DNA from: an uncultured candidatus Porisulfidus sp. | Lineage (GTDB): Bacteria; Pseudomonadota; Gammaproteobacteria; Poriferisulfidales; Oxydemutatoraceae | DNA length: 64,000 nucleotides | Direction of reading: 5' to 3' | NCBI GenBank assembly: GCA_965200865.1 | Contig: CBDAVG010000002.1 | Coordinates: 1,903,337 to 1,967,336, forward strand | Part shown: in pieces, positions 46,834 to 64,000 of the stretch | Position numbering within the stretch: position 1 is the first letter of the stretch | How the letters are laid out: each line of letters begins with the position of its first letter | The notes under the pieces: model-generated | Seen by the model: the letters and a program-made list of their open reading frames with translations, nothing else | Database searches by the model: none | What the model was told of the DNA's origin: nothing | Program-made: the position numbers and the translations under genes

Positions 46834-47565
46834 ATGAAAGATAATAAGAAAGCGATTGCAGACCTGGACAAAGCGATCAAACTAGACCCGAAGAATGTTG
46901 CTGCTTACGGTAGTAGAGGCGTTGCTAAAGTTGAAACAGGAGACTATGAGGGAGCAATTACAGACTTTAGCAAAGCGATTGAGCTAGACCCGAAGAATGC
47001 TTATGCTTACGCTAGTAGAGGCTTTGCTAAAAGTGCAATAGGAGACTACAAAGAGGCGATTGCAGACTTGGACATAGCGATTGGACTAAACTCCAAAAGT
47101 TCTGTTGCTTACAGTACTAGAGGCTTTGCTAACAGCCGAATAGGAGATTATACGCAAGCGATTGCAGACTACGACATGGCAATTGAACTAGACCCGAATC
47201 ATGCTGATGATTACTCGTATAGAGGCATGGCTAAAAACGAAATAAAAGACTTTGTGGGGGCGATTGCAGACTACGACATGGCAATTGAACTAGACCCGGA
47301 TCATGCCGATGATTACTTGTCTAGAGGCATTGCTAAAGTTGAAATAGAAGACTACGAGGAAGCGATTGTAGACTTGGACAAAGCGATTGAACTAGACTCT
47401 GGAAATGCTGGATCCTACTGTGGTAGAGGTTTTGCTAAAAGCCAAATAGGAGACTATAGAGGGGCACTTGCAGACTTCAACAAAACGATTGAACTAGACC
47501 CTAAAAATGCAGATCGCTATAAACAATTAATAAAGGCTGTTAAGGAACAACCTGATAATCTTTGA
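46834..47565 (+). CDS. Tetratricopeptide repeat protein
   Basis: 34-aa repeats AY.SRG.AK..IGDY.GAIAD.DKAIELDP. Confidence 0.93.
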   Translation: MKDNKKAIADLDKAIKLDPKNVAAYGSRGVAKVETGDYEGAITDFSKAIELDPKNAYAYASRGFAKSAIGDYKEAIADLDIAIGLNSKSSVAYSTRGFANSRIGDYTQAIADYDMAIELDPNHADDYSYRGMAKNEIKDFVGAIADYDMAIELDPDHADDYLSRGIAKVEIEDYEEAIVDLDKAIELDSGNAGSYCGRGFAKSQIGDYRGALADFNKTIELDPKNADRYKQLIKAVKEQPDNL

Positions 47566-47599
47566 TTCAAACTCACACAATTTAGATTATAGCTGCGAA

Positions 47600-47821
47600 A
47601 TGAAAGATAATAAGAGAGCGATTGCAGACTTGGACAGAACGATTGAACTAAACCCGAATCATGCTGTTGCTTACAGTAGTAGAGGCATTGCTAAAAGCGC
47701 AATAAAAGATTACAAAGGGGCGATTGCAGACTTGGACAAAGTGATTGAGCTAAACCCTGAAAATGCAGATCAATATAGACAATTAATGAAGACTGTTAAG
47801 GAAAAACTTTATAGTCTTTAA
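47600..47821 (+). CDS. Short TPR protein (internally deleted paralog, possibly non-functional)
   Basis: Same N- and C-termini as 46834-47565 but only about 1.5 repeats. Confidence 0.7.
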   Translation: MKDNKRAIADLDRTIELNPNHAVAYSSRGIAKSAIKDYKGAIADLDKVIELNPENADQYRQLMKTVKEKLYSL

Positions 47822-47849
47822 TTGAAACTTACACAATTTAGATGATAGT

Positions 47850-48073
47850 CTCACTTAACCGCTTGCGCTATATAATTATGTTAACCAACTATAGGGGAGG
47901 GCTATCATGCTCTCCCTAAAGTACCGTTCTTCATCAGGAAAACCGCTTGCGCCACTTGGTTTTAGTTCCCGTAAATTGGATGGCGTACGACTTTATTTGT
48001 GCAGACGTATTGCGTTTCGGGAGGACATGATAGCCCTCTCCTACAATTCTATAAAATACTTTTTCAACAGCCG
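47850..48073. mobile_element. Partial MITE
   Basis: TAGGGGAGGGCTATCATGCTCTCCCTA hairpins; TACTTTTTCAACAGCC end. Confidence 0.72.
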
Positions 48074-48134
48074 TACGGTGCGATGACTATCATATCAAGT
48101 TCTACTAAAGAAAAGAGAGCCTTCTAAATTTGAA

Positions 48135-48866
48135 ATGAAAGATGATACGAAAGAGATTACAGACTCCAATAAAGCAATTGAGCTAGAACCGAAGAATGCT
48201 GATGCTTACGGTAGTAGAGGCATTGATAAAGTTAAAAGAGGGGACTTTAAGGGGGCAATTACAGACTTTAGCAAAGCAATTGAGCTAGAGCCGAAGAATG
48301 CTGATGCTTACAGTAGTAGGGGCTTTGCTAAAAATGCAATGAAGGACTACAAAGAGGCGATTGCAGACTTAGACAAAGCGATTGAACTAAACCCGAATCA
48401 TGCTGCTGCTTACAGTAGTAGGGGCTTTGCTAAAGGTGGAATAAAAGATTACAAAGGGGCGATTGCAGACTTCAACATAGCAATTGAACTAGACCCGAAC
48501 CATGCTGAGGATTACTCGTTTAGAGGCATTGCTAAAAACAAAATAAAAGACTTTAAGGAGGCGATTGCAGACTTCAATATAGCAATTGAATTAGACCCGG
48601 ATCATGTCGATAATTACTCGTTTAGAGGCATTGCTAAAAAAGAAATAAAAGACTTTAAGGGGGCAATTGCAGACTTAGATAAAGCGATTAAACTAAACCC
48701 TAAAAATGCTGGAGCCTACTGTGGTAGAGGTTTTTCTAAAAGCCAAATAGGAGACTATAGAGGGGCACTTGCAGACTTCAAAAAAGTGATTAAACTAGAT
48801 CCTAAAAATGCAAATCAGTATAAAAAATTAATAAAGGCTACTAAGAAAAAACTTGATAATTTTTAA
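48135..48866 (+). CDS. Tetratricopeptide repeat protein
   Basis: Same length (243 aa) and layout as 46834-47565. Confidence 0.93.
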   Translation: MKDDTKEITDSNKAIELEPKNADAYGSRGIDKVKRGDFKGAITDFSKAIELEPKNADAYSSRGFAKNAMKDYKEAIADLDKAIELNPNHAAAYSSRGFAKGGIKDYKGAIADFNIAIELDPNHAEDYSFRGIAKNKIKDFKEAIADFNIAIELDPDHVDNYSFRGIAKKEIKDFKGAIADLDKAIKLNPKNAGAYCGRGFSKSQIGDYRGALADFKKVIKLDPKNANQYKKLIKATKKKLDNF

Positions 48867-48967
48867 TTCAAACTTACACAATTTAGATGATAGCTTTGTG
48901 AAATTTGGTTGAGCGTGGCAACCTCGCCTGTTTCCCTAAAGTTTTAGTTTAGATATCATTTCCCCTA

Positions 48968-49033
48968 AAAAGCAAAAGCCACCGCCGAAGCAGTGGCCTT
49001 GCACCCGCCAAACCGAAGTCGGACGGGAGGATT
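48968..49033 (-). ncRNA. Putative two-hairpin small RNA, copy 1 (no ORF downstream)
   Basis: Promoter TTGATT(49067-49062)-16 nt-TATAAT(49045-49040), then CCCGTCCGAC-TTCG-GTTTGGCGGG, GCCACTGC-TTCG-GCGGTGGC and a T run. Confidence 0.65.
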
Positions 49034-49122
49034 ACATATATTATATGTGTGGTTGGTAAGAAATCAAGAATTTGGGTAGATGAAATTTAGTGCGTTGGAC
49101 AAGTATTACAAAATGAAAATAC

Positions 49123-49375: not shown

Positions 49376-49451
49376 ATACCATCCCGTCAGGTGGTTATCA
49401 TAATTTAGTGGCGTGCGGCGGTTAGGTTTGTATCTTAGCGTTGATTTTCAA

Positions 49452-49681
49452 TTATCTCAAAAGTACTGCAAGGAGAATCGCCACCCCGACACCAATAATC
49501 CACAGGATAGTACGGTTATTCAAACGATACATCTCACCCATAAGCCTTGTTTCTAGTTCTGCCAAATCTACTTTAGTTACTACCTCTTTCGAAGCTGCAT
49601 ATTGGCTACGGCTTCCTTTGCCTCAGCATCGGATAATTCAGGGATTTTTCTTAATGCATTGTATAGGGCTATATCAGTCAT
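49452..49681 (-). pseudogene. Frameshifted copy of the DUF1640-like gene at 56573-56803
   Basis: 230 bp versus 231 bp; 1-nt deletion near 49597 (gctgcatattgg versus gctgcaataatgg). Confidence 0.75.
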
Positions 49682-49789
49682 ATCTTAATATCATTATGTT
49701 GCTTGAAAGCCGTAATATAAATGAAGTGGATACGAAATTGGTTCGCCTAGATATTTTATGTTCGCAAACATTCTCTAGCACTTTCCTTA

Positions 49790-49854
49790 AAAAGCATAAG
49801 CCACCGCCGAAGCAGTGGCCTGCACTCGCCAAACCAAAGTCGGACGATGGGATT
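49790..49854 (-). ncRNA. Putative two-hairpin small RNA, copy 2
   Basis: TTGATT(49888-49883)-16 nt-TACAAT(49866-49861); hairpin 1 has a compensatory U-A pair in place of C-G. Confidence 0.62.
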
Positions 49855-49939
49855 GCGTATATTGTATGTGTAGTTGGAGAGAAATCAAGAATTGAGGTAA
49901 ACGAAAGTTGGCGCGTCAGATAAGTACTACAAAATGAAA

Positions 49940-50075
49940 AAACCACCCCGTCAGATAGAACCGCCGATTGAACCAGTAGGTCAATCGGCGTGGCATTGTG
50001 CAGAACCTTGACATGATTGTTAAACGCATGCATTACAAAATGCATAGGCTTGCCACCCCTCTAGAGGAGGAGAAT
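49940..50075. repeat. MITE-internal module remnant downstream of atpC
   Basis: AACCACCCCGTCAGATAGAACCGCCGATTGAACCAGTAGGTCAATCGGCG, as at about 14237 and 39001. Confidence 0.7.
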
Positions 50076-50081
50076 GGCGGG

Positions 50082-50501
50082 TTAGCGGCCGCGTTGGCGC
50101 AGGCGTTGTATCATGCGAAGTTGCGCTGCGACTTCGGCAAGTTCGGTCATTGTTTTGGCAGTTTCTATATCGGTGAGTTGGGTTTGTAGCAGTTCTTCGG
50201 CACGCTGCTTGGCTTCCAATGCCCTGGCTTCGTCCAAATCCTCGCCACGCAAAGCAGTGTCGGTTAGGACTGTGACCATGTGCGGTTGCACTTCTATCAC
50301 TCCGCCAGAGACATAGAAGTGGCGGTCATCTTGACCTTCTATGCGCACCCGCACTTCGCCGGGGCGTAGGGTTGATAGAAACGGGGCATGCTGCGGATAG
50401 ATGCCGACTTCGCCCAGCTCGGCTTCGGCAAAAACCGCATTGACCTCGCCGTTGAAGATCTCCGCTTCGGCACTAACTATATAAGTACGTATCGTGTTCA
50501 T
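50082..50501 (-). CDS. atpC: F0F1 ATP synthase epsilon subunit
   Basis: IVSAEAEIF.G, GEVGIYPQHAP, VSGGVIEVQP; full length. Confidence 0.95.
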   Translation of the reverse strand: MNTIRTYIVSAEAEIFNGEVNAVFAEAELGEVGIYPQHAPFLSTLRPGEVRVRIEGQDDRHFYVSGGVIEVQPHMVTVLTDTALRGEDLDEARALEAKQRAEELLQTQLTDIETAKTMTELAEVAAQLRMIQRLRQRGR

Positions 50502-50522
50502 CTGCTACCGCGCATGATTAGC

Positions 50523-51263
<741 letters not shown>

Positions 51264-51854: not shown

Positions 51855-52982
51855 TTAGTCAGCTAGCTCAGCTGCCGCTGCGGCATGCAACGCTTCCCAG
51901 ATAAAGCCCAACAGCTCTCTGGCACACGCCACCTTAATCTTGTTGAAGTGTTTGTTGGCATGAAACATTTGATGATACTTCTTATACAGACGTCTCATGC
52001 AACGGTCGCCAATGTCTATAGCAACCAGGTCTTGGTCTGCGCGTCGACCCCGCAACGCTTTGTTAACCGTGCAACGGCTACCCGCCAACTGGCACGCTTC
52101 TACTGCCGCAGTGCGGATATATTTGTTGCCCATATTAGTAATACCTCCTTTGCGACTTTTGCCACCCGAACTATACTCGCAAACGCTCAAGCCGGCATAG
52201 CTCATGAGCTTGCGCGGATGAGCAAAGCGATGGATGTCGCCTATCTCAACGATGAACGTCATCGCCGTCAACTCAGCAATCCCTCGGATACAACATAAAT
52301 AGCCGACTGCCTGGCGATATCGCTTGGACATCGCTAACTGATGGATATCGTTATCGTATTGTTTGACAACTCCTTGGTGCGTTGCCAGTAGATAGAGCTT
52401 ATACTCTAAATCTTTGCGGAAATGTAGATTGAACCTTTCATCTTTAAGCAAGCCACTTAAGAACGCCAGGTGTCCTTTCGTCCAATAACTCTTGCACTGC
52501 GTGCTGCTACGATAATCAATCCCTTGGCAACGGCATGCCGACAAAATCTGCTGCTTGCAGATCTTGCACGCATCCACCGCTTGGTTGCGTCCACGAATGA
52601 GTAGACGATGCCCCTCGCTCTCCTCATCAATCGCACGGACGATTTTTAACAGACCTTGCTTATAGTATCTGGCCAGCTTCTCGCTATCTAAGCGATCGGT
52701 CTTGATGCGATCTGAGGCACACACTGGGATCTGCGATGGTGCGATCAGATCGCAGTGAATGCCGACCTTGTCAAATTGTCTCTTTAGCGAAAAACCTAAA
52801 TAGCTCGCCTCATAACAGACCTTGATAAACTCTTTCGGCAATGCAGTCTTGATGATTGCCTTATGCAATGCCTTAAAGTTTGGGGCGGTTTTAATGGTAT
52901 GATAATGATTGTGTTTGTTAATGAAGGTGGCGGTGAAACGATTATCGTCAACATCAACGCCAACATAAAGTATACTAGTCAT
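51855..52982 (-). CDS. IS110-family DEDD recombinase
   Basis: YVGVDV, CYEA, KTDRLD, YAGL...EYSSG, GNKYIRT, VACAREL. Confidence 0.93.
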   Translation of the reverse strand: MTSILYVGVDVDDNRFTATFINKHNHYHTIKTAPNFKALHKAIIKTALPKEFIKVCYEASYLGFSLKRQFDKVGIHCDLIAPSQIPVCASDRIKTDRLDSEKLARYYKQGLLKIVRAIDEESEGHRLLIRGRNQAVDACKICKQQILSACRCQGIDYRSSTQCKSYWTKGHLAFLSGLLKDERFNLHFRKDLEYKLYLLATHQGVVKQYDNDIHQLAMSKRYRQAVGYLCCIRGIAELTAMTFIVEIGDIHRFAHPRKLMSYAGLSVCEYSSGGKSRKGGITNMGNKYIRTAAVEACQLAGSRCTVNKALRGRRADQDLVAIDIGDRCMRRLYKKYHQMFHANKHFNKIKVACARELLGFIWEALHAAAAAELAD

Positions 52983-53158: not shown

Positions 53159-54534
53159 ATGCCTTATTTAAAATCAAGTCATTTTACTCATTTTTAATCT
53201 CCTTTTCTGAATATCTATTTAGGCCGCAGCCGGACACTCATGACGCGGGTCAAACGGCTTATTGTGCTTGAGTACTCCATGAATAATACGGGCGAGCTTA
53301 TGTGCACAAGCGACAATGATTTCCTTTTTGCTTAACTCCGGGCGTCGGCGTTGCAAGCGGTTGGCAAAGTCGCGGATAATGGGGTTATGAAGCCGTGCCG
53401 AGAGTGCCGCCATAAACAAAGCGGTGCGTAGGCAGCGTTTGCCAATTTTAGAGATATGAGCCCGTGCTTCGCAGTTGCCGGATTGTCTGCGCATTGGTGC
53501 GATGCCGATAAAAGCAGCGAGTTGCTTGGGATGCTCAAACGTATTATCATCTAATACTGCACACAGGGTGGCTGCGATTTGCATACCGATACCGGGTATC
53601 GAACACAATAATTTGCAGGTCTGTGCAAGTTGTTCGTTTTCGGCAATAAGCCTTTCGATTGAAGCATCAATCTGATCGATGCGTTGCTCAAGGTGTCTCA
53701 AGTCTGCAGCCGCACTGCGCTTTTGTCCAGCGGTGCGCAAAGTCTTTTCACTATTCCTTAACATCGTCTTCGCTAATGTCAGTTTGTGTCTGCGTTTGAG
53801 AGCATCCTTCAAGGTCTGGATAGCCTGTGACGAACTGGTCCACCGATAATTAGGGTTTGACACTGCGAAGCGTGCAATTAAGCGCGCATCATCGCCATCA
53901 GTTTTATTACGCATATTAAGACTTTTGCGAAAATAGGCAACTTGAGCCGGGGGTGCCACCTGTATCGGATGTTTAGCCCGGGAAGCTCGCTCGCAAAGGT
54001 TTGTCTCCAAGCCACCAGTGGCTTCAACGCAGATCGGGCAGCACTTTGCGCCCTGTTTAGCAAGCCAAGCTAACAGCTGTTTAATACCTTTGATATTATT
54101 TCTAAATTGTGCTTCCGAGAAACTCTCGTCAACGAATAATAATGCCACCTCTAAAGTGTCTTTAGAGACATCAATGCCGATTGCGGCAGGTTGTTTGTGT
54201 TTCACCATAATTTCCTCCATAATAGTTATTGAATGAATGAATTACTAGGTATCAAGCAGTGTTTAGGAAAGTATGACTACGCCGCCCAAACAGGTAAATA
54301 CGAGATCTAAAGTCCCAAGCTGCCTTACGAGCTCTATAGTCATAACGCCGGAGGAGTGCTTATCATGTTAACAGGCTTTAATGCCTAATCCTCTCTTGAG
54401 CGTGTCTCCTCCGACTTCCTAGGCACTGCATCTACCTAAGCGTTTATCTTATATCAAATAAGCCATAGTTAAATATACCTGCATCTACCTAAGCGTTTAT
54501 CTTATATCAAATAAGCCATAGTTAAATATACCTG
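53159..54534 (-). mobile_element. IS110-type element inserted in a REP-like hairpin
   Basis: Splits GGGAGGGCTAGCA-TG-CCCTCCC with a TG core at 53157-53158 and 54533-54534; about 300 bp of non-coding sequence upstream of the recombinase. Confidence 0.82.
53219..54220 (-). CDS. IS110-family DEDD recombinase
   Basis: IGIDVSK, VEATG, KTDGDDA, SIPGIG, RRQSG, ACAHKL. Confidence 0.93.
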   Translation of the reverse strand: MEEIMVKHKQPAAIGIDVSKDTLEVALLFVDESFSEAQFRNNIKGIKQLLAWLAKQGAKCCPICVEATGGLETNLCERASRAKHPIQVAPPAQVAYFRKSLNMRNKTDGDDARLIARFAVSNPNYRWTSSSQAIQTLKDALKRRHKLTLAKTMLRNSEKTLRTAGQKRSAAADLRHLEQRIDQIDASIERLIAENEQLAQTCKLLCSIPGIGMQIAATLCAVLDDNTFEHPKQLAAFIGIAPMRRQSGNCEARAHISKIGKRCLRTALFMAALSARLHNPIIRDFANRLQRRRPELSKKEIIVACAHKLARIIHGVLKHNKPFDPRHECPAAA

Positions 54535-54535
54535 C
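54426..54535. repeat. Perfect 53-bp tandem duplication at the IS110 end
   Basis: CTGCATCTACCTAAGCGTTTATCTTATATCAAATAAGCCATAGTTAAATATAC at 54426 and 54479. Confidence 0.92.
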
Positions 54536-54791
54536 CCTCCCTAAAGTACCGTTCTGTATCACTACAACCGCTTGCGCCATTTGGTTTTGGTTCCCATGAA
54601 TTGGATGGCGTACGATTTTATTTTTGCAGGCGCAACCCGTTCTGCAAAATGTTACGCTGTTCGTGCTACTGCAACAAACGGCGGGTATTGCATTTTGCAA
54701 TGCATGCGTTTAGCAATCATGTTGAGGTTCTACAGAACGTCACGCCGATTGACCTGTTGGTTCAAGCGGCGATTCTTTTTTCAACAGCCCC

Positions 54792-54995
54792 AACATCGGA
54801 GCCTCGTTTGAGACCTTCCGATGAGCCTAATGCAATCGTGCGAACCACGCCGTCGCCCAATTGCTGCTGCACTTCCAATGTTAAATCGCTCTCACCTTCA
54901 ACATTCAATGCGTCGTATATTTGCGGTATCTGCTCACGCGGAAACTCCACGTCAACTACCGCGCCTACGATTTGTACGATTTGTCCAGAATCCAT
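54792..54995 (-). pseudogene. atpD: ATP synthase beta subunit, N-terminal fragment, copy 1
   Basis: [15 protein letters not shown]...[23 protein letters not shown]; truncated at GSDV by a MITE end. Confidence 0.92.
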
Positions 54996-55022
54996 TTTCT
55001 CCTCCGACAGTATTTCTATAGG

Positions 55023-55340
55023 TTAAATTGCTGCAGCGCCGCCGACAATCTCGGACAACTCCTGCGTAATCGCTGCCTGACGCGCTTTGTTATACGCCAG
55101 TTGCAGCTCGTCAATTAGTGATCCGGCGTTCTCGGATGCGCTCTTCATCGCCACCATGCGCGCCGCCATCTCGCAGGCGACATTCTCCACCACCGCCTGA
55201 TAAACTTGTGATTCGATATAACGCTTGAGTACAAAATCAAGCACAGTGTGCGAACCCGGCTCATAAATATAATCCCAATAATACTTCATACTCTCGTCCT
55301 CTATCGGCAGTACTGGCAAAAGCTGTAACGCCTGCGGCTT
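55023..55340 (-). pseudogene. atpG: ATP synthase gamma subunit, C-terminal fragment, copy 1
   Basis: QLLP...WDYIYEP...[13 protein letters not shown]...[22 protein letters not shown]. Confidence 0.92.
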
Positions 55341-55572
55341 TGCCGCCGATCGTTCGCAGTCGGTTTGATCTAGCTATAACTACTTTGAGTAATTGACAGC
55401 CTCGTAAATTGAAAATCAAAGATGGTTTTATTAAACTGCCAAATTATGACAACGGCAACATCGTCGTATAAAAAATTGTGTCATGATTATCATGTCAAGT
55501 TATACTAAAAAAAGTTTTGACTGCATGAAAAGTTAAGCCAAAGCATGGAATACGACTGTAGGATCTGTCAAG

Positions 55573-56487
55573 TTGAATAATATCCTTAAATTTGTTTGTA
55601 ATTTTTATAGTATAAGAAAGTTTTTTGCTATTTTAATAGTACTTCTTGTCTTATCGGTATTCATTAATTCTTTTATCTTTTTTGCGATAGGAGCCTTCAT
55701 AGCCACGGTATTGTATATAGTCTGTAAGTTTGCTGATGCTAATGCTTACTATAAAAAAGGCCTTTCTCAATTTGTAATGAAAGATCACAGGAAGGCGGTT
55801 GAATTAAATTCAGAGTCTGCTGAAGCCTACCATAGTAGAGGTTTTACTAAATTTGAAATGAAAGATTATAAAGGGGCGATTGCAGATTATGACAAGGCGA
55901 TTGAACTAGATCCAAATCATCCTGCTAATTACTGTATTAGAGGTGTTGCTAAAAGTGAAATAGGAGACCAAAAGGGAGCAATTGCAGACTACGACAAAGC
56001 GATTGAACTAGACTCGAATTGTACCGATGCTTACTGTGCTAGAGGTGCTACTAAAAGCGAAATGAGAGACTATAAGGGGGCGGTTGCAGACTATGACAAA
56101 GCGATCAAACTAGACCCGGATGATGTTGCTGCTTACGGTAGTAGAGGTGCTGCTAAAAGTGAAATAAGAGACTACAAGGGAGCGATTGCAGACTACGACA
56201 GAGCGATTGAATTAAACCCGAATTATGCTGCTACTTACGGTAGTAGAGGTGCTACTAAAAGCGAAATAGGCGACTATAAGGGAGCGATTGCAGACTACGA
56301 CATAGCGATTGAATTAGACCCGAATTATGCTGCTGCTTACGGTAGTAGAGGCATTGCTAAATGCGAGATAGGGGACTACAAGGAGGCAATTTCAGACTTG
56401 GACAAAATAATTGAACTTGACTCCCAAAATGCAGATCGTTATAGAAAATTAATGGAGGATACTGAAAAGAAACTTAATCATCTTTAA
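55573..56487 (+). CDS. Membrane-anchored TPR protein
   Basis: N-terminal hydrophobic hairpin, then about six TPRs. Confidence 0.92.
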   Translation: MNNILKFVCNFYSIRKFFAILIVLLVLSVFINSFIFFAIGAFIATVLYIVCKFADANAYYKKGLSQFVMKDHRKAVELNSESAEAYHSRGFTKFEMKDYKGAIADYDKAIELDPNHPANYCIRGVAKSEIGDQKGAIADYDKAIELDSNCTDAYCARGATKSEMRDYKGAVADYDKAIKLDPDDVAAYGSRGAAKSEIRDYKGAIADYDRAIELNPNYAATYGSRGATKSEIGDYKGAIADYDIAIELDPNYAAAYGSRGIAKCEIGDYKEAISDLDKIIELDSQNADRYRKLMEDTEKKLNHL

Positions 56488-56572
56488 TTCAAACTTACAC
56501 AATTTAGACTACAGGCTCCGTAAATCTGATGGCGCAGTGCGGTTGGGATTGTATCTTAGCTTTGATTCCCAA

Positions 56573-56803
56573 TTACTTCAAAAGTACTGCGAGGAGAATC
56601 GCCACCCCGGCACCAATAATCCACAGGATAGTACGGTTATGCAAACGATACATCTCACCCATAAGCCTTGTTTCTAGTTCTGCCAAATCTACTTTAGTTG
56701 CTACCTCTTTTGAAGCTGCAATAATGGCTACGGCTTCATTCGCCTCAGCATCGGATAATTCAGGGATTTTTTTTAATGCATTGTATAGGGCTATACCAGT
56801 CAT
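56573..56803 (-). CDS. Small DUF1640/CCDC90-like coiled-coil protein with TM tail
   Basis: LYNALK...SDAEA...VATKVDLAELETRL...ILWIIG. Confidence 0.72.
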   Translation of the reverse strand: MTGIALYNALKKIPELSDAEANEAVAIIAASKEVATKVDLAELETRLMGEMYRLHNRTILWIIGAGVAILLAVLLK

Positions 56804-56911
56804 ATCTTAATATCATTATGCTGCTTGAAAGCCATATTGTACATAAAGTGGAAGTGTGATTGGTTCGCCTAGATATTTTATGTTCGCAAACATTCTCTGG
56901 TACTTTCCCTA

Positions 56912-56977
56912 GAAAGCAAAAGCCACCGCCGAAGCAGTGGCTCTGCGCCCGCCAAACCGAAGTCGGGCAGGGAAATT
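56912..56977 (-). ncRNA. Putative two-hairpin small RNA, copy 3
   Basis: TTGATT(57011-57006)-16 nt-TATAAT(56989-56984), two UUCG hairpins, T run. Confidence 0.68.
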
Positions 56978-57065
56978 ACTTACATTATATGTGTGACAAA
57001 AGAAAAATCAATAGTCCTTAGCATATACTGTCAAAATAGTAATGCTGCCATCTTAAATCCCGATA

Positions 57066-57698
57066 CTAACGCCATTCTTTAGGATAAGAAAATTCGCCCT
57101 GATTATCTTTAAGTTTGCGAGGAAATTGAGCAATTTTAAGTTGTTCATCGGATATTTTCCTCTTGAAAAAAGAGTATCGCTTTAACTCTGCTACAAAAAA
57201 ATCGGCAGGTGTAATAAGACCAACAGGTAATTTCAAAGTCGTTTTTATATATTTCAAAGGTTCGGCAAGATCCGAGTCGTTTGACAGAAGAATAGGAACA
57301 TCGCATTCGTTCTGAAAACAATCTATCAACATAAAAGTTGCGATGTTAACATCCGAACCTTTCTCTTCAAATTTAGAAATTTTCACTATCTGTTCGTGTA
57401 AAGGGTTACCTTCTGCTAAAAGTTTTCCCTTGACGTTTTGTTTCTTAAACAATCCAAAATGGATTTCTATTTCTGGAATTGTTCGTAAGGCTCTTAGATA
57501 GACATCCTGTCTTTGTCTTACACCAGGGTTACTATCGTTGGGAATCACCTTTGCTGTAAAATACCGTATTTTTGAAATTTTGCAGTCTTCAAAACTGAAA
57601 GACTCAATCAGTGCCTTCAAATCTAGCCACTTATATTTTGTCTTTTTTAGACGGTAATAAAGATTGAAACCATCTACATAGATAATATAATTTTTCAA
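57066..57698 (-). CDS. NYN-domain (LabA/DUF88, PIN-like) putative ribonuclease
   Basis: YVDGFNLYY, IRYFTA, RQDVYLRAL, EEKGSDVNIA, LSNDSDL acidic motifs; TTG start with AAGGTAGG RBS. Confidence 0.9.
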   Translation of the reverse strand: MKNYIIYVDGFNLYYRLKKTKYKWLDLKALIESFSFEDCKISKIRYFTAKVIPNDSNPGVRQRQDVYLRALRTIPEIEIHFGLFKKQNVKGKLLAEGNPLHEQIVKISKFEEKGSDVNIATFMLIDCFQNECDVPILLSNDSDLAEPLKYIKTTLKLPVGLITPADFFVAELKRYSFFKRKISDEQLKIAQFPRKLKDNQGEFSYPKEWR

Positions 57699-57713
57699 AT
57701 TAGACCTACCTTA

Positions 57714-57778
57714 GAAAGCAAAAGCCACCGCCGAAGCGGTGGCCTGCACCCGCCAAACCGAAGTCGGGCAGGGAAATT
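57714..57778 (-). ncRNA. Putative two-hairpin small RNA, copy 4, directly upstream of the NYN gene
   Basis: CCCTGCCCGAC-TTCG-GTTTGGCGGG, then GCCACCGC-TTCG-GCGGTGGC-TTTTGCTTT, ending about 15 nt before the start codon. Confidence 0.7.
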
Positions 57779-57784
57779 ACTTAT

Positions 57785-57812
57785 ATTATATGTGCGGTTA
57801 GAGAGAAATCAA
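57785..57812 (-). promoter_or_regulatory. Sigma70-type promoter of the sRNA-NYN unit
   Basis: TTGATT-16 nt-TATAAT; boxes and spacing conserved in all four copies while the spacer sequence varies. Confidence 0.75.
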
Positions 57813-57846
57813 GAAGCGAGGCAATGTCAACCCAGAGTGCAAATGT

Positions 57847-58191
57847 GGAACTGCTGAAAAAATACTGTCATCGCACAAATTCAATCGCTTGCGTCATATA
57901 ATTACGCGAAACACCGTAGGAGAGGGCTAGCATTCCCCCCCTAAAGTACCGTTCTGTATCACTACAACCGCTTGCGCCATTTGGTTTTGGTTCCCATGAA
58001 TTGGATAGCGTACGATTTTATTTTTGCAGGCGCAACCCGTTCTGCAAAATGTTACGCCGTTTGTGCTACTGCAACAAACGGCGGGTATTGCATTTTGCAA
58101 TGCATGCGTTTAGCAATCATGTTGAGGTTCTACAGAACGTCACGCCGATTGACCTACTGGTTCAATCGGCGATTCTTTTTTCAACAGCCCC
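57847..58191. mobile_element. MITE; counterpart of the IS110-occupied copy, without the insertion
   Basis: GGAACTGCTGAAAAAATA ... TTTTTCAACAGCCCC; 57941-58190 differs from 54541-54790 at about 6 positions. Confidence 0.85.
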
Positions 58192-58395
58192 AACATCGGA
58201 GCCTCGTTTGAGACCTTCCGATGAACCCAATGCAATCGTGCGAACCACGCCGTCGCCTAATTGCTGTTGTACTTCCAATGTTAAATCGCTCTCACCTTCA
58301 ACATTCAATGCGTCGTATATTTGCGGTATATGCTCACACGGAAACTCCACGTCAACCACCGCACCTACGATTTGTACGATTTGCCCAGAACTCAT
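58192..58395 (-). pseudogene. atpD: ATP synthase beta subunit, N-terminal fragment, copy 2
   Basis: Same breakpoint as copy 1, offset by exactly 3400 bp. Confidence 0.92.
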
Positions 58396-58422
58396 GTTTT
58401 CCTCCGACAGTATTTCTATAGG

Positions 58423-58746
58423 TTAAATTGCTGCAGCGCCTCCGACAATCTCGGAAAGCTCTTGCGTAATCGCTGCCTGACGCGCCTTGTTATACGCCAG
58501 TTGCAGCTCGTCAATCAGTGAACCGGCGTTCTCGGATGCGCTTTTCATTGCAACCATTCGCGCCGCCATCTCGCAGGCGACATTCTCCACCACCGCCTGA
58601 TACACTTGTGATTCGATATAACGCTTGAGTACAAAATCAAGCACATTGTGCGAATCCGGTTCATAAATATAACCCCAATAATGCTTCATGCTCTCGTCCT
58701 CTATTGGTGGCACTGGCAAAAGCTGCAACGCTTGCGGCTTTGCCAC
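58423..58746 (-). pseudogene. atpG: ATP synthase gamma subunit, C-terminal fragment, copy 2
   Basis: Same extent as copy 1. Confidence 0.92.
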
Positions 58747-58846
58747 CGATCGTTCGCGATTGGTTTGAACTAGCTATACCATTTTTTTAGATTATTATTG
58801 CTATACTATTGCGGTTATTCAACCTAAATACGTGGAAAGCTAAACA

Positions 58847-60045
58847 ATGATAAAGAAAATAACGATACTTAAAATAGTGGTAGTTGCCATGATATGGGGG
58901 GGATTTGTTGTCCAAACAGTATCAGGCAATCAAGAGATTATCCATGAGGATAGTGCGGATGTAGTGAGAGACTACCAGAAAGCGGCAGAACAAGGAGATG
59001 TGAATGCTCAATCCATACTTGGAGCAATGTATTACGAAGGCAAGGGCGTGCAAAAAAACTATGCAAAAGCATTTGAATGGTTTGAAAAAGCAGCCAAGCA
59101 AGGAGATGCAGATGCTCAAAACATCCTTGGATTGAGGTATTACAATGGCGAGGGGGTACCAAAAGATTACACAAAAGCGTTTGAATGGTTTGAAAAGCAG
59201 TCAAGCAAGGACATGCAGATGCTCAAAACAACTTAGGGGTGATGTATGAGAGTGGCAATGGTGTGCCGAAAGATTATAAGAAAGCAGCTGAATGGTACCA
59301 AAAAGCAGCTGAGCAAGGACACGCAAATGCTCAATACAACTTAGGGGTAATGTATGCCAATGGCGAGAGTGTGCCAAAGGACTATACAAGGGCAATTGCC
59401 TGGTATCAAAAAGCAGCCGAGCAAGGATTTGCAAAAGCTCAACACAACTTAGGGGTAATGTATGCCAATGGCGAGGGTGTGCCAAAAGACTATGCAAAAG
59501 CAATTGCCTGGTACCAAAAAGCAGCCGAGCAAGGATTCGCAGATGCTCAATATAACTTAGGGGTGATGTATGTCAATGGCGAAGGTATGCTAAAAGATTA
59601 CACGAAAGCGTTTGAATGGTTTGAAAGAGCGGCGGCACAAGGATTTGCAGATGCGCAATATAACTTGGGGGTGATGCATGCCAATGGCGACGGTATGCCA
59701 AAAGACTATACAAAGGCAATTGCATGGTACCAAAAAGCAGCCGAGCAAGGATTTGCAAAAGCTCAACACAACTTAGGGGTGATATATTACAACGGCCAAG
59801 GCGTGCCAAAAGACCATACAAAAGCAGTTAGTTTGTTGGAAAAAGCGGCCGAGCAAGGATTTGCAAATGCTCAGGATGCTCTTAACAAAATTAAACAGTC
59901 AACAGTCTCTTTCTCTGATATGCTAGATAAAAGTTTGTCAGCAGGAGTTGTGGGCGCGTTTGTAGGTGGCACTGCGGTTCTTCTCTTCATTATAATTAGA
60001 TTGTTTTATAATTTCTTTGTTTTTAAGATTAAAGATAAAGTTTAA
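58847..60045 (+). pseudogene. Sel1-repeat protein (signal peptide, about 8 repeats, C-terminal TM) split by a 1-nt frameshift
   Basis: AQYNLGVMY.NG.GVPKDY.KA..WYQKAAEQG repeats; A4 at 59193-59196 where the preceding repeat has A5 (59085-59089). Confidence 0.82.
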
Positions 60046-60095
60046 AGAAGTAGAGGCTATAACCTAAATGAAATACGACTATAGGATCTATTAAA

Positions 60096-62855
60096 TTGAG
60101 TAATATCCTTAAATCTATTAGTAATTTTTATAAGTTTGTTAAAAAATCAACTTACCATAACAAAGATCGCGCCAAAGGCGAAATGGGAGGTTATAAAGAG
60201 GCAATTGCAGATTTAAATAAAAAGATCAAACTAGATCCGAAGGCTGCTAATACTTACTTTAACAGAGGGGTTGATAAATATAAAATGGCAGACTACAAAG
60301 GGGCAATTTCGGCCTTGAACAAAGCGATTGAACTGGACTCGAATCATGCTGATGCTTACTGGTTTAGAGGTTCTACTAAACATAAAATGAAAGACTGCAA
60401 AGGGGCAATTGCAGACTTTGACAAAGTAATTGGACTAGACCCGAATCATGCTATGGCTTATCATGGTAGAAGTTTTGTTAAATATACAATAGGAGACTAT
60501 AAGGGAGCGATTGCAGATTTAAATAAAAAAATTGAACTAGACCCAAAGGATGCTGACTCTTATAAAGAGACAATACAAAATATTAAAAGGGAAGTAAAGG
60601 ATGTATATAAAAGAGGTCTTTATAAACTTAAAGTGGAAGATTATACAGGAGCAATTGCAGACTTGGACATAGCCATTGAACTAGAAATAAATCATGCTGT
60701 TGCTTATCATGGTAGAGGTTTTGCTAAAAGTAAAACAGGAGACCCCAAAGGGGCGATTGCAGACTTGGACATAGCCATTGAACTAAATTCAAAATCTGCT
60801 AATGCCTACCACAGCAGAGGCATTTCTAAATATACAATAGGAGACTACGAGGGAGCGATTGCCGACTATGACAAAGCTATTGAACTAAAGCCGAATTATG
60901 CTGATGCTTACCATAACAGAGGCATTGCTGAGAGTAGCATAGGAAACCTCAAAAGGGCAGTTGCAGACCTGGACATAGCGATTGAACTAAATCCAGCGTA
61001 TGCTAATGCCTACCATAGTAGAGGCGTTGCTAAATATAATTTAGGAGACTACGAGAAAGCAATTGCCGACTATGACAAGGCAACTGAACTAGACCCACAT
61101 CATGCTGGCACCTACTATAGTAAAGGCATTGCTAAAAGTGCAATAGAGGACTATGAGGGGGCGATTGCAGACTTGGACAAAGCGACTGAACTAAACCCAG
61201 CATCTGCTAATACTTATAAAGAAACAATACAAAGTATTAAAGAGAAAAAGATATATAAAAGAGGCATTTCTAAACTTGCAATAGAAGACTATAAGGGAGC
61301 AATTGCAGACTTGGACAAAGCGATTGAACTAGACTCGAAGCATGTTGTTGCTTACGGTAGTAGGGGCATGGCTAAAAGCGAAATCGGAGACCACAAGGGG
61401 GCGATTGCAGACTTGGACAAAGCGATTGAACTAGACCCGAAACATGCTATTACTTACAGTAGTAGAGGCACCGCTAAAAGCAAAATAGGAGACTATAAGG
61501 GAGCGATTGCAGACTACGACATAGCGATTCAACTAGATCCGAAGCATGTTACTGCTTACGGTTGTAGAGGCATGGCTAAAAGCGAAATCGGAGACTACAA
61601 GGGGGCGATTGCAGACTACAGCATGGCGATTGAACTAGAACCGAAGGATCCTGTTGCTTACAACAGTAGAGGCATGGCTAAAAGTGTAATAGAAGACTAT
61701 GAGGAGGCGATTGCAGACTTTGACAAAGCAATAAAACTTGACCCGAAACATGCTGCTGCTTACGGTAGTAGAGGTATTGCTAAAAGCAAAATAGGGGACT
61801 ATAGGGAGGCAATTGCAGACTTTGATATGGCGATTGAACTAGAACCGAGGGATGCTGTTGCTTACAGTAATAGAGGTATTGCCAAAAGTATAATAGAAGA
61901 CTATGAGGGGGCAGTTGCAGATCTAAACAAAGCGACTGAACTAAATCCAGAATCTGCTAATGCTTATAAAGAAACAATACAAAGTATTAAAAAGGAGGCG
62001 GCTAAACTAAATCCAGCGTCTGCTGATGCCTACCATAACAGAGGTTCTTCTAAATATAAAGTAGGAGATTACAATGGGGCGATTGTAGACTACGACAAAG
62101 CGATTGAGCTAGACCCGAAGCATGCCGTCGCTTACTATAGCAGAGGCGTTGCTGAGGGTAGAATAGGAAACCACAAAAAGGCGATTGCAGACTTCGATAA
62201 AGCAATTGAACTAGACCCGAATCATGCTGCTTACGATAGCAGAAGTTTTGCTAAATATAAAATAGGAGATTATGAGGGAGCGGTTGCAGATCTAAACAAA
62301 GCGACTGAACTAAATCCAGCGTATGCTAATGCTTATAAAGAAGCAATACAAGTTATTAAAAAGGAGGCGACTGAACCAAATCCAACATCTGCTAATGACT
62401 ACCATAGCAGAGGTTCCGCTAGATATAAAATAGGGCACTATGAGGAAGCGATTACAGACTACGACAAGGCGATTGAATTAGATCCGAATTATGCTGTCGC
62501 TTACCATAACAGAGGTTTTGCTAAACATAACATAGGAGACTATGAGGGGGCGGTTGCGGACTACGACAAGGCGATTGAACTAGATCCGAATCATGCCGTC
62601 GCTTACAATAGCAGAGGTTTTGCTAAATATAGAATGGGAGACTATGATGGAATGATCTCAGACTTAGACAAAATGATTGAACTAACCCCTCTGTTTGCCG
62701 CCGCCTACCATAGCAGAGGTTTTGCTAGACATAAAATGGGAGACCAGAAGGGGGCGATTGCGGATTTGAACAGGGCAATTGAACTAGACCCGAAAAATGC
62801 AGATCATTATGGAGAATTAATGAAGGATGCTAAAGAAAAACTTTATAATCCTTAA
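60096..62855 (+). CDS. Large TPR protein (more than 20 repeats)
   Basis: Continuous 34-aa TPRs with recurring YKETIQ.IK linkers. Confidence 0.93.
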   Translation: MSNILKSISNFYKFVKKSTYHNKDRAKGEMGGYKEAIADLNKKIKLDPKAANTYFNRGVDKYKMADYKGAISALNKAIELDSNHADAYWFRGSTKHKMKDCKGAIADFDKVIGLDPNHAMAYHGRSFVKYTIGDYKGAIADLNKKIELDPKDADSYKETIQNIKREVKDVYKRGLYKLKVEDYTGAIADLDIAIELEINHAVAYHGRGFAKSKTGDPKGAIADLDIAIELNSKSANAYHSRGISKYTIGDYEGAIADYDKAIELKPNYADAYHNRGIAESSIGNLKRAVADLDIAIELNPAYANAYHSRGVAKYNLGDYEKAIADYDKATELDPHHAGTYYSKGIAKSAIEDYEGAIADLDKATELNPASANTYKETIQSIKEKKIYKRGISKLAIEDYKGAIADLDKAIELDSKHVVAYGSRGMAKSEIGDHKGAIADLDKAIELDPKHAITYSSRGTAKSKIGDYKGAIADYDIAIQLDPKHVTAYGCRGMAKSEIGDYKGAIADYSMAIELEPKDPVAYNSRGMAKSVIEDYEEAIADFDKAIKLDPKHAAAYGSRGIAKSKIGDYREAIADFDMAIELEPRDAVAYSNRGIAKSIIEDYEGAVADLNKATELNPESANAYKETIQSIKKEAAKLNPASADAYHNRGSSKYKVGDYNGAIVDYDKAIELDPKHAVAYYSRGVAEGRIGNHKKAIADFDKAIELDPNHAAYDSRSFAKYKIGDYEGAVADLNKATELNPAYANAYKEAIQVIKKEATEPNPTSANDYHSRGSARYKIGHYEEAITDYDKAIELDPNYAVAYHNRGFAKHNIGDYEGAVADYDKAIELDPNHAVAYNSRGFAKYRMGDYDGMISDLDKMIELTPLFAAAYHSRGFARHKMGDQKGAIADLNRAIELDPKNADHYGELMKDAKEKLYNP

Positions 62856-62920
62856 CTTTAAACTTACACAATTTAGATTACAGGCTCAAAGCATGGAACA
62901 TGACTATAGGATCTATTAAA

Positions 62921-64000
62921 TTGAGTAATATTCTTAAATCTATTTGTGATTTTTATAGTGCAAAAAAGTTTTTTGCCGTTTTAATCGTACTTCTTGTCTT
63001 ATCAGTATTCATTAATTCTTTTATCTTTTTTGGGGCAGGAGCCTTCATAGCCACAGCATTGTACATAACTTGTAAGTTGACTAATACTAATACTTACCTT
63101 AGCACGGGTGTTGCTAAACATGCAATAGGAGACTATGAAGGAGCGATTGCAAACTTGGATAAAGCAATTGAACTAGATCCGAATCATGCTGGTGCTTACC
63201 GTAGTAGAAGTTCTGCTAAAGATGCAATAGGAGACTATCAAGGAGCGATTGCAGACTTGAACAACGCAATTGAACTAGATCCGAATCATGTTGTTGCTCA
63301 CCTTTGGAGAGGTTCTGATAAACATAAAATAGGAGACTATAGGGGGGCGATTATAGATTACGATAAAGCGATTCAATTTGACCCAAAGAATGTTTATGCT
63401 TACGGTCTCAGAGGCATTTCTAAAAATGAAATGGGAGACTACAAGGGGGCGATTGCAGACTACGACAGAGCGATTGAACTAGAACCGAATCGTGCTGTTG
63501 CTTACGGTAGCAGAGGCACCGCTAAAAGTGAAATAGGAGATTATGAAGGGGCGATTGCAGACTTCAACAAGGCAATTGAACTAGATCCGAAGGATGCTCA
63601 TTTTTATAAAGAAAAAATACAAAATATTAAAAATGATGTACATAAAAGAGGTTCTTCTAAATTTGAAACGAAAGATGATAAGGAGGCGATTATAGACTTA
63701 GGCGAAGTGACTGAACTAGACCGCAAGAATGCTGATGCTTACGGTGAGCAAGGTTTTGCTAAAGTTGAAATAGGAGACTACAAGGGAGCGATTGCAGACT
63801 TTGACAAAGCAATTAAACTAGACCCAAATTGTGCTGCTGCTTACGCTAGTAGAGGCTTTGCTAAAAGTGAAATAGGAGACTACAAGGGGGCGATTGCAGA
63901 CTTGGATAAAGCGATTGAACTAGACCTCAATCATGCTGTCGCTTACTGTGGTAGAGGCATTGCTAAAAATAAAATAGGAGACTACAAGGGGGCGATTGCA
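62921..64000 (+). CDS. Membrane-anchored TPR protein, runs off the window end
   Basis: TTG 62921 gives MSNILKSICDFYSAKKFFAVLIVLLVLSVF..., paralogous to 55573-56487, followed by TPRs. Confidence 0.9.
   Translation, partial: MSNILKSICDFYSAKKFFAVLIVLLVLSVFINSFIFFGAGAFIATALYITCKLTNTNTYLSTGVAKHAIGDYEGAIANLDKAIELDPNHAGAYRSRSSAKDAIGDYQGAIADLNNAIELDPNHVVAHLWRGSDKHKIGDYRGAIIDYDKAIQFDPKNVYAYGLRGISKNEMGDYKGAIADYDRAIELEPNRAVAYGSRGTAKSEIGDYEGAIADFNKAIELDPKDAHFYKEKIQNIKNDVHKRGSSKFETKDDKEAIIDLGEVTELDRKNADAYGEQGFAKVEIGDYKGAIADFDKAIKLDPNCAAAYASRGFAKSEIGDYKGAIADLDKAIELDLNHAVAYCGRGIAKNKIGDYKGAIA

Follow-up and report, generated by a model that had tools for sequence, protein, structure and literature searches.

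Does a short structured RNA encoded directly ahead of a gene for a NYN nuclease belong to that gene as a partner, or is it only the leader of the gene's transcript? The question is raised by a 64,000-nucleotide stretch of DNA from an uncultured candidatus Porisulfidus sp. (assembly GCA_965200865.1, contig CBDAVG010000002.1, positions 1,903,337 to 1,967,336), which we call the window and whose numbering we use throughout. An earlier annotation of this DNA, referred to below as the original prediction, had described a minus-strand promoter, a small RNA with two hairpins, a terminator and a NYN gene, and had proposed that together they form an RNA-antitoxin/nuclease module. Here we report that an RNA of the same design stands beside related NYN genes in unrelated phyla, and we weigh what the two might do together.

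A two-hairpin RNA unit precedes a NYN nuclease gene

Scanning the minus strand for promoters revealed two TTGATT and TATAAT pairs with 16-nt spacers, each agreeing with the consensus at 10 of 12 positions. Each is followed, about 8 nt past its -10 box, by an RNA region of roughly 65 nt with two adjacent UUCG-loop hairpins (units U1 and U2; Table 1), and the same scan placed terminator stem-loops with T-rich tails at 57745-57722 (U1) and 56944-56919 (U2). The 1.6-kb region holds three terminator-like sites, against a mean of 1.3 after shuffling. In U1, a short C-rich 5' tail leads into hairpin 1 (57749-57772) and then hairpin 2 (57718-57747), which is the terminator and ends in a U-rich tail; its predicted 5' end was placed from promoter spacing and a conserved A. 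The corresponding hairpins of U2 lie at 56948-56971 and 56916-56946. Both units are unusually stable, with minimum free energies (MFE) of -34.5 kcal/mol (z -4.37) for U1 and -34.1 kcal/mol (z -3.88) for U2, levels reached by none of 200 shuffles in either case, and the 25-nt core of hairpin 1 occurs three times in the window at up to 3 mismatches, where 100 shuffles give an expectation of 0. By scan, fold and Pfam, the promoter, both UUCG hairpins, the terminator, the ribosome-binding site (RBS), the TTG start and the NYN gene are all present where the original prediction had put them, and the second promoter and RNA unit that it reported past the NYN stop begins 55 nt beyond it. On the opposite strand, within the first NYN codons, we also observed a TTGAAA-16-TATAAT promoter-like site (57664-57691, plus strand; 11 of 12 positions), which points back over the RBS and the RNA unit and may be a by-product of AT-rich codons.

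The only Pfam family matched by the protein is NYN (PF01936; 31.8 bits against a cut-off of 24.2), and the PADLOC profile HEC-09 aligns over its full length (E 1.3e-39; residues 2-210 on positions 2-203 of 203). Residues D9, E111, E112, D116, N140, D141 and D143 are invariant in an alignment of 20 sequences. A sequence-only search of the PDB with the protein gave no real match; with an AlphaFold2 model (mean pLDDT 92.1), the top Foldseek matches in the PDB were 2qip (VPA0982, LabA/NYN; E 5.6e-9) and the MARF1 NYN domains 5yaa and 6fdl, with E-values ranging from 5.6e-9 to 7.8e-6, TM scores of 0.70-0.75 on the target and sequence identities of 10-15%. Because the acidic residues are invariant and the model confirms the NYN fold, the protein is predicted to be catalytically competent. 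It belongs to a large family: among the best 8,000 candidates scored, more than 7,900 were homologs of similar length, spread over many phyla.

The RNA accompanies NYN genes across phyla

We compared the locus with the best 80 of at least 557 matching loci from species-representative genomes, each 6.6 kb long and carrying a NYN homolog of 37-48% identity. The first, crude scans undercounted the RNA badly, finding a terminator pattern upstream in 21 of 76 loci and, with a hairpin regular expression, 17 matches in 15 loci; reading the upstream sequences after the terminator scan revealed the same design in unrelated phyla. Both scans were replaced by a covariance model, R1, built from 16 aligned RNAs of other phyla, none from this genus. 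Its seeds were chosen through the hairpin scan, and its E-values are rough, as calibration was shortened. The search with R1 covered the window, three sister-genome regions and the 80 loci.

R1 found a full-length match beside NYN in 79 of the 80 loci (E 2e-18 to 1.5e-4), no more than 150 nt from the gene; in the one remaining locus the contig includes only 57 nt of upstream sequence. All 84 full-length matches in the 6.6-kb loci lie within that distance of NYN and none elsewhere. Although foreign-built, the model also recovers U1, U2 and a third unit of the window, U3, and it matches a degenerate fourth, U4, only at E 0.19 (Table 1). In five whole genomes, all 10 full-length NYN genes have an RNA of their own; in three of these (G042, G044 and G045) every RNA match adjoins NYN, and in the last two the NYN-adjacent RNA is the genome's only match. 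Among the loci and whole genomes examined, we found no close NYN homolog without the RNA. A functional pairing of RNA and NYN is strongly supported, because a covarying two-hairpin RNA adjoins the gene at 79 of the 80 loci; this is the structured RNA that the original prediction had named as its own test. Just 5 of the 79 loci with the RNA have two copies, and each copy seems to be served by a promoter of its own.

The genes around these loci were also compared. Flanking open reading frames (ORFs) are partly related to defence or mobility (an AbiEii-type ATPase, TrwC relaxases, PIN, HEPN and SAVED proteins, a restriction-modification pair, an integrase), and many are housekeeping genes. The nearest neighbouring ORFs that encode 100 aa or more, 122 across the 80 loci, share no recurrent protein family, so a protein antitoxin as the partner of NYN is unlikely.

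The RNA is structured and carries its own promoter

Across loci the design follows a fixed order: a promoter; a conserved A and a run of C's; a UUCG hairpin whose 3' arm ends in GGG; a joint of one base; and a long, G+C-rich, bulged hairpin that forms the intrinsic terminator and passes into a U-rich tail. Of 84 copies, 56 have a UUCG loop, and the median match length is 70 nt. In 103 model-aligned matches, 94.6% of cells are paired and all 18 pairs change on both sides (346 cells). None of 500 column shuffles reaches this covariation, and the signal collapses when the partner column is slid by 1-3 positions. Because that alignment is fitted to R1, we made a second, model-free one with plain MAFFT from the 108 nt that precede each of the 54 same-strand starts; on it, RNAalifold again predicted both helices, and all 16 of its pairs show compensatory changes. 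Single-sequence MFE folds gave the same two hairpins in seven of seven cases, from five phyla and two mobile elements. The unpaired parts of the RNA are its most conserved parts, and it has no variable, guide-like segment. Rfam 15 has no family at the units, whether searched to E 10 in the window region or to E 1 in 8 further loci.

TTGACA-like and TAnnAT boxes precede the RNA at a fixed distance in all three of the layouts described below, and the RNA has, as these boxes predict, a sigma-70-type promoter of its own. In 73 of the 84 copies an A lies five bases before the helix; the positions after it are C in 64-82 of the 84. Since the boxes keep their distance and the A is so widely shared, the transcript likely starts near this A.

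Three layouts indicate a linked gene

In 54 of 79 loci RNA and NYN share a strand and the RNA lies upstream, and one of these loci has a second copy downstream, as in the window; in 14 it lies just past the stop codon on the opposite strand (convergent), and in 11 it lies upstream on the opposite strand (divergent). The promoter-RNA-terminator-gene order that the original prediction had likened to type III systems therefore holds for the window and these 54 loci but not for the other 25, and terminator attenuation is not a universal logic, because those 25 are convergent or divergent. Bracketing of the gene by two units, likewise part of the original prediction, is real in the window but local to the genus, being seen at 1 of the 80 other loci, and the second unit precedes a different ORF, of 76 aa.

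In a quick maximum-likelihood tree of the 79 proteins, the layouts need 3 changes, against a mean of 23.2 after shuffling, with 0 of 200 shuffles as low, and the tree cuts across taxonomy. Because the RNA has its own promoter and occurs in three layouts it is, as far as sequence comparison can tell, a linked gene and not only a leader. The few layout changes, on a tree that crosses taxonomic lines, indicate that this linkage survived rare rearrangements and horizontal transfer; the RNA appears to have stayed with NYN through at least two or three changes of orientation.

The module travels on plasmids and in phage-related DNA

NYN homologs were found on 422 plasmids, including some of only 3.5-4.6 kb. 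On the E. coli plasmid NZ_CP091696.1 (L120; 3,461 bp), the RNA lies directly upstream of NYN (E 8.3e-6), and RefSeq annotates no non-coding RNA (ncRNA) at the site; on a mobilisable plasmid of 4.6 kb, a weak R1 match (E 0.0035) occupies the equivalent place. The presence of the module on 3.5-kb E. coli plasmids makes it directly testable in a laboratory strain. As a side observation, NZ_CP091696.1 carries just three annotated genes, for NYN, a VbhA-family antitoxin and an HTH protein, and of 5,426 complete E. coli genomes, 4 carry identical NYN-RNA DNA, in each case on a plasmid of this kind.

In the Mycobacterium prophage prophiGD43A-1, NYN (gene 6) has the integrase gene on one side and that of the immunity repressor on the other, and the RNA is convergent, right after the NYN stop (E 1.1e-14). 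Among IMG/VR viral contigs, the RNA is in place at 25 of 38 NYN loci; of the loci without a match, 2 lack upstream sequence, and none of the 6 with 25-32% identity gave one.

Orphan RNAs and distant homologs

RNA copies without NYN exist as well: four in genome G041, of which one was picked up by a single search, one in G043, and the extra copies in the genus of the window. We observed orphan RNAs beside toxin-like or nuclease genes at L164:1001-1071, L165:990-1058, L106:1501-1565 and L163:1009-1200. Their neighbours are a Fic/DOC gene with an HTH partner (convergent), a gene for an HNH-motif protein (convergent) and an AbiEii-like gene near an integrase, which the RNA follows; at one of the four sites, two convergent RNA copies lie beside an IS1595-like transposase gene. 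These family labels come from motifs read in the ORF translations.

Towards more distant homologs the RNA becomes harder to recognize. Among NYN loci of the class sample, it is in place at L114 (E 9.6e-8), at L112 and L118 (about 5e-4) and at L117 (0.019), and a direct R1 search of L111, L113, L115 and L116 found none. Across 151 genomes of the class, with only 33 candidates scored in each, too few to judge co-occurrence, the RNA was found in 4 and NYN (E<=1e-20) in 8, and only the genome of the window had both. Two RNA-only matches in G+C-rich genomes, L108 and L109, look like generic terminators and were rejected. Upstream of the IncN-type NYN of E. coli and Klebsiella and of a NYN on a Granulicella plasmid, R1 gives weak matches in the right place (E 0.085 and 0.06), and these regions fold as two hairpins, the first one larger; the matches are suggestive only.

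A multiplied RNA gene in a rearranged island

In the genome under study, the RNA gene is multiplied to five copies, all on one strand and within 18 kb, in an island downstream of the atp operon that is ridden with insertion sequences (IS). By BLAST, the copies lie at 57714-57812, 56912-57030, 49791-49871 and 48969-49051, with one more just past the window end; the RNA-unit finding accounts for these five repeated promoter-hairpin units. Two of them, U3 and the copy past the window end, face convergent genes and have no same-strand gene downstream (the gene next to U3 is a TPR gene at 48135-48866), and U4 sits just downstream of a duplicated atpC. Table 1 lists the features of the window.

Table 1. 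Features of the RNA-NYN locus and of the other RNA copies in the window
Feature	Position	Strand	Basis
U1 promoter, sigma-70-type, TTGATT/16 nt/TATAAT	57785..57812	-	10/12 consensus positions
U1 small RNA, about 66 nt, predicted ends	57713..57778	-	MFE fold; R1 match 57709-57782, E 1.7e-5
RBS-like AAGGTAGG, between U1 terminator tail and NYN start	57705..57712	-	read from sequence
NYN nuclease gene, 210 aa, TTG start, HEC-09 member	57066..57698	-	ORF, Pfam, PADLOC
U2 promoter, TTGATT/16 nt/TATAAT	56984..57011	-	promoter scan
U2 small RNA, paralog of U1	56912..56977	-	fold; R1 match 56907-56981, E 2.1e-5
76-aa ORF with C-terminal hydrophobic helix, downstream of U2	56573..56803	-	no family
U4, degenerate copy (TACAAT -10 box, UUUG loop)	49785..49871	-	BLAST match, 82%; R1 match 49785-49857
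U3, promoter-bearing orphan copy, nothing downstream on its own strand	48963..49067	-	R1 match 48963-49036, E 1.8e-8, the best in the window

Convincing copies among 40 related genomes are confined to the same genus (four in G001, three in G003, one in G004, none in G002); three further related genomes have matches of merely 21-32 nt. The promoter hexamers are kept in 10-11 of the 11 promoter-bearing copies within the genus, and promoter-bearing RNAs are confined to genomes with NYN or a NYN remnant; G004 and G003 have a promoterless copy directly after atpC. As for NYN itself, G000 and G001 have an intact gene, G003 has one interrupted by an IS, and G002 and G004 have none; just one RNA copy per genome precedes NYN. 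In G003 (L024), the splitting element is a 224-aa transposase gene that separates NYN residues 2-125 from 121-211, and both flanking RNA units are kept. The 76-aa ORF matched no Pfam, NCBIfam or PADLOC family. It adjoins units in G001 and G003 too, with its order relative to NYN differing: NYN comes first in G000 and G001, the 76-aa ORF in G003. A unit together with this ORF is duplicated at 49418-49871 with 89% identity. Seen in this genus alone, the units look more like a repeat peculiar to the genus than like a partner of NYN. This narrows the scope of the original prediction: in this genome the unit is not special to NYN, which one copy of the five precedes. The RNA does adjoin NYN in 79 of the 80 other loci.

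Duplicated atp-operon pieces make up the island together with copies of IS110 and with TPR/Sel1 genes. A stretch with atpC and the 3' half of atpD (50073-51243) matches 74145-75315, past the window end in window numbering, at 96%, and a fragment with the 3' end of atpG and the 5' end of atpD (54535-55378) is repeated at 57935-58778 (94%). Past the window end, the atp duplications lie at about 74145-76000, and the intact atpD, too, seems to be located outside the window; in the sister genomes G003 and G004 the operon is undisturbed. Two IS110-family transposase genes (53219-54220 and 51855-52982, both minus strand) match Pfam DEDD_Tnp_IS110 and Transposase_20; one IS110 copy is repeated, inverted, at about 72981-73982, past the window, with 99% identity, and the pair brackets the rearranged island. 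TPR and Sel1-like genes form a dense cluster (46834-48866, 55573-56487 and 58847-63999 onward) encoding proteins of up to 1,018 aa, many of which share an N-terminal membrane segment and high mutual similarity. A palindromic hairpin segment at 58120-58187 follows the atpD 5' fragments, and its inverted copy at 49957-50044 (86-90% identity) lies between the duplicated atpC and U4.

How the RNA might act on NYN

The best explanation, to which we assign a probability of about 0.5, is a type III-like module in which the RNA gene of about 65 nt would be the conserved antitoxin partner of a stand-alone HEC-09 NYN RNase. By analogy with a type III antitoxin or with the RNA RCd22 and its protein AbiF, the RNA would bind the RNase and keep it inactive. 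Where a terminator stands between RNA and gene, as in the window and two thirds of the loci, NYN would be made only through read-through and the RNA would be in excess. If the RNA supply failed, through plasmid loss or a phage-imposed shut-off of transcription, free NYN could then cleave cellular or phage RNA. Extra antitoxin copies, such as those in this genus, would be harmless. An antidote role fits because orphan RNAs exist while NYN without the RNA was not seen among close homologs, and action in trans is suggested because the 14 convergent and 11 divergent layouts cannot be leaders. The plasmids, the prophage slot, the partly defence-related or mobile neighbours and the reported embedding of the family in Hma systems give the pair a selfish or defence setting that also favours this reading. 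A broader proposal, which we hold tentatively and a little less firmly, is that HEC-09 NYN is never a single-gene system: it would be one half of an unrecognised and very widespread RNA-protein module, whose non-repetitive, independently transcribed 65-nt RNA would serve as the antidote of a PIN-like RNase.

Several observations weigh against an antitoxin role. The unit is single and non-repeated here, and type III antitoxins are tandem repeats processed by the toxin; the protein has a NYN/PIN-like fold rather than a ToxN-like one. The sole HEC-09 representative tested in print protected, in the accessible part of the report, against no phage tried (10.1101/2024.01.29.577857). Orphan copies stand beside other genes, namely the 76-aa ORF here and HNH, Fic and AbiEii-like genes elsewhere, so the RNA may have a role independent of NYN. 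Once NYN identity drops under about 33%, the RNA is detected weakly or not at all, with 0 of 6 viral loci positive at 25-32% and none found in 4 of 8 class-sample loci. Finally, sequence alone cannot separate an inhibitory role from an activating, scaffolding or substrate role.

This last point leads to the strongest competitor, which we regard as unlikely but worth keeping in sight: the RNA could be a cofactor, scaffold or dedicated substrate that activates or targets NYN or is matured by it, without any toxin-antitoxin logic. Tight linkage and covariation would be equally expected, recognition or cleavage might take place at the conserved, unpaired 5' tail and at the junction of the helices, and the HEC-09 representative was, in the accessible part of its description, clonable and inert in E. 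coli. However, a targeting RNA is harder to reconcile with the lack of a guide-like segment and with unpaired parts that are the most conserved; orphan RNAs are common and NYN without RNA is not, which an antidote fits better; and the module occurs on tiny plasmids and in a prophage accessory slot.

Less probable again is a purely cis-acting leader or attenuator, the fallback that the original prediction had allowed for, in which the hairpins would only set read-through into NYN and the short transcript would have no function of its own. The 54 same-strand loci, the window included, look just as such a leader would, and in 48 of them the 3' end of the R1 match is no more than 38 nt from the first aligned codon, which leaves no room for a second promoter. 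The 25 loci with convergent or divergent RNAs contradict this simple form, as do promoter-bearing orphans without a downstream gene (U3 here, others elsewhere), and the loop, 5' tail and junction are conserved beyond what a terminator needs.

We consider it very improbable that the unit is a DNA-level element (a recombination or insertion site, the end of a mobile element or a terminator cassette) whose link to NYN reflects co-mobility only. What speaks for it comes from the genus: units flank cassettes of differing order, the single promoterless copy of G004 lies directly after atpC where others have cassettes, and the region is full of IS110 copies and duplications. Yet homologous recombination between 100-nt repeats suffices for such local shuffling, no recombinase is consistently nearby among the flanking ORFs of the 80 loci, and a DNA element explains neither why promoters keep a fixed distance from the unit in every orientation and across phyla nor why the covariation is of the RNA type, G-U pairs included.

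The weakest candidate, and one we rejected as the main mechanism, is type I-like antisense pairing of the C-rich RNA with the G-rich ribosome-binding region of NYN to block translation: there is a C run at the 5' end, several copies have G-rich sequence after the terminator, and convergent or divergent layouts could yield complementarity through overlapping transcription, but some of these C's are tied up in the stem of hairpin 1, the commonest layout gives no complementarity by construction, and in RNAduplex the 79 cognate pairs of RNA and start region barely beat non-cognate ones (mean z -0.29; -27.3 versus -25.6 kcal/mol).

Comparison with known systems

To our knowledge, RNA antitoxins that act on a protein are known from few families: ToxIN, CptIN, TenpIN and, more recently, AbiF. 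As described in the accessible text of the relevant papers, type III toxin-antitoxin systems consist of an endoribonuclease and an ncRNA gene, and their promoter-RNA-terminator-nuclease order yields an excess of RNA (PMC8860590, PMC13682666, PMC5086642). The pair described here resembles them in the intrinsic terminator between RNA and nuclease gene (in the window and the 54 same-strand loci, not in the other 25) and in its occurrence on plasmids and in phage-related DNA. Unlike ToxIN, CptIN and TenpIN, it has no tandem repeat array (TRF found 0 arrays in 56400-58100), which is a further respect in which the type III likeness of the original prediction falls short; a single two-hairpin RNA belongs to each promoter and terminator and may be convergent or divergent to the gene, and the protein is NYN/PIN-like (PF01936, with LabA and MARF1 matches) rather than ToxN/AbiQ, CptN or TenpN. 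The NYN-RNA pair is not a member of ToxIN, CptIN or TenpIN. In line with the original prediction, which knew of none, no described type III system with a NYN toxin was found in Rfam or in the texts that the literature search reached.

The nearest analogue in logic is AbiF (Abi_2/HEPN) with its abiF-motif ncRNA RCd22 from Clostridioides difficile, as far as the accessible text of its description goes (PMC12373285). The two differ in protein, which is HEPN there and NYN here (no Abi_2 match), and in RNA, with the Rfam abiF family unmatched in the window region and 8 loci. The LabA/NYN and MARF1 structures share the fold of our protein and lack a counterpart of the conserved last ~40 residues of this family; we know of no RNA partner for LabA or MARF1 NYN domains.

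HEC-09 was introduced as a NYN gene embedded in Hma defence systems, with a MARF1-like structure and three conserved aspartates, in the accessible part of the preprint (Payne et al., bioRxiv 10.1101/2024.01.29.577857). The window protein is a full-length member, and its fold relatives agree with the published MARF1 likeness. In contrast, the accessible part of that preprint treats HEC-09 as a single protein gene, without mention of an RNA partner, and the window gene is not embedded in Hma or another multi-gene defence system, its neighbours being TPR/Sel1 genes, atp fragments and IS110. A full-text literature search, with subscription journals and bioRxiv supplements outside its scope, found no ncRNA linked to NYN or HEC-09 in the texts that it reached. 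The RNA-NYN pair thus appears to be undescribed, and it probably works like a toxin-antitoxin or defence module.

What sets the present pair apart from these systems is its nuclease, whose fold is another one and occurs far more widely, and the small RNA dedicated to it, for which neither Rfam nor genome annotation has an entry. An antidote role for this RNA would change how HEC-09 should be cloned and assayed, may explain negative defence screens of the protein alone, and would provide a compact RNA-controlled RNase; the orphans beside HNH, Fic and AbiEii-like genes would hint that the same RNA serves other toxins. The pair would then add a new class to bacterial immunity and plasmid maintenance, the first among toxin-antitoxin or abortive-infection systems of protein and RNA in which the toxin is a NYN protein.

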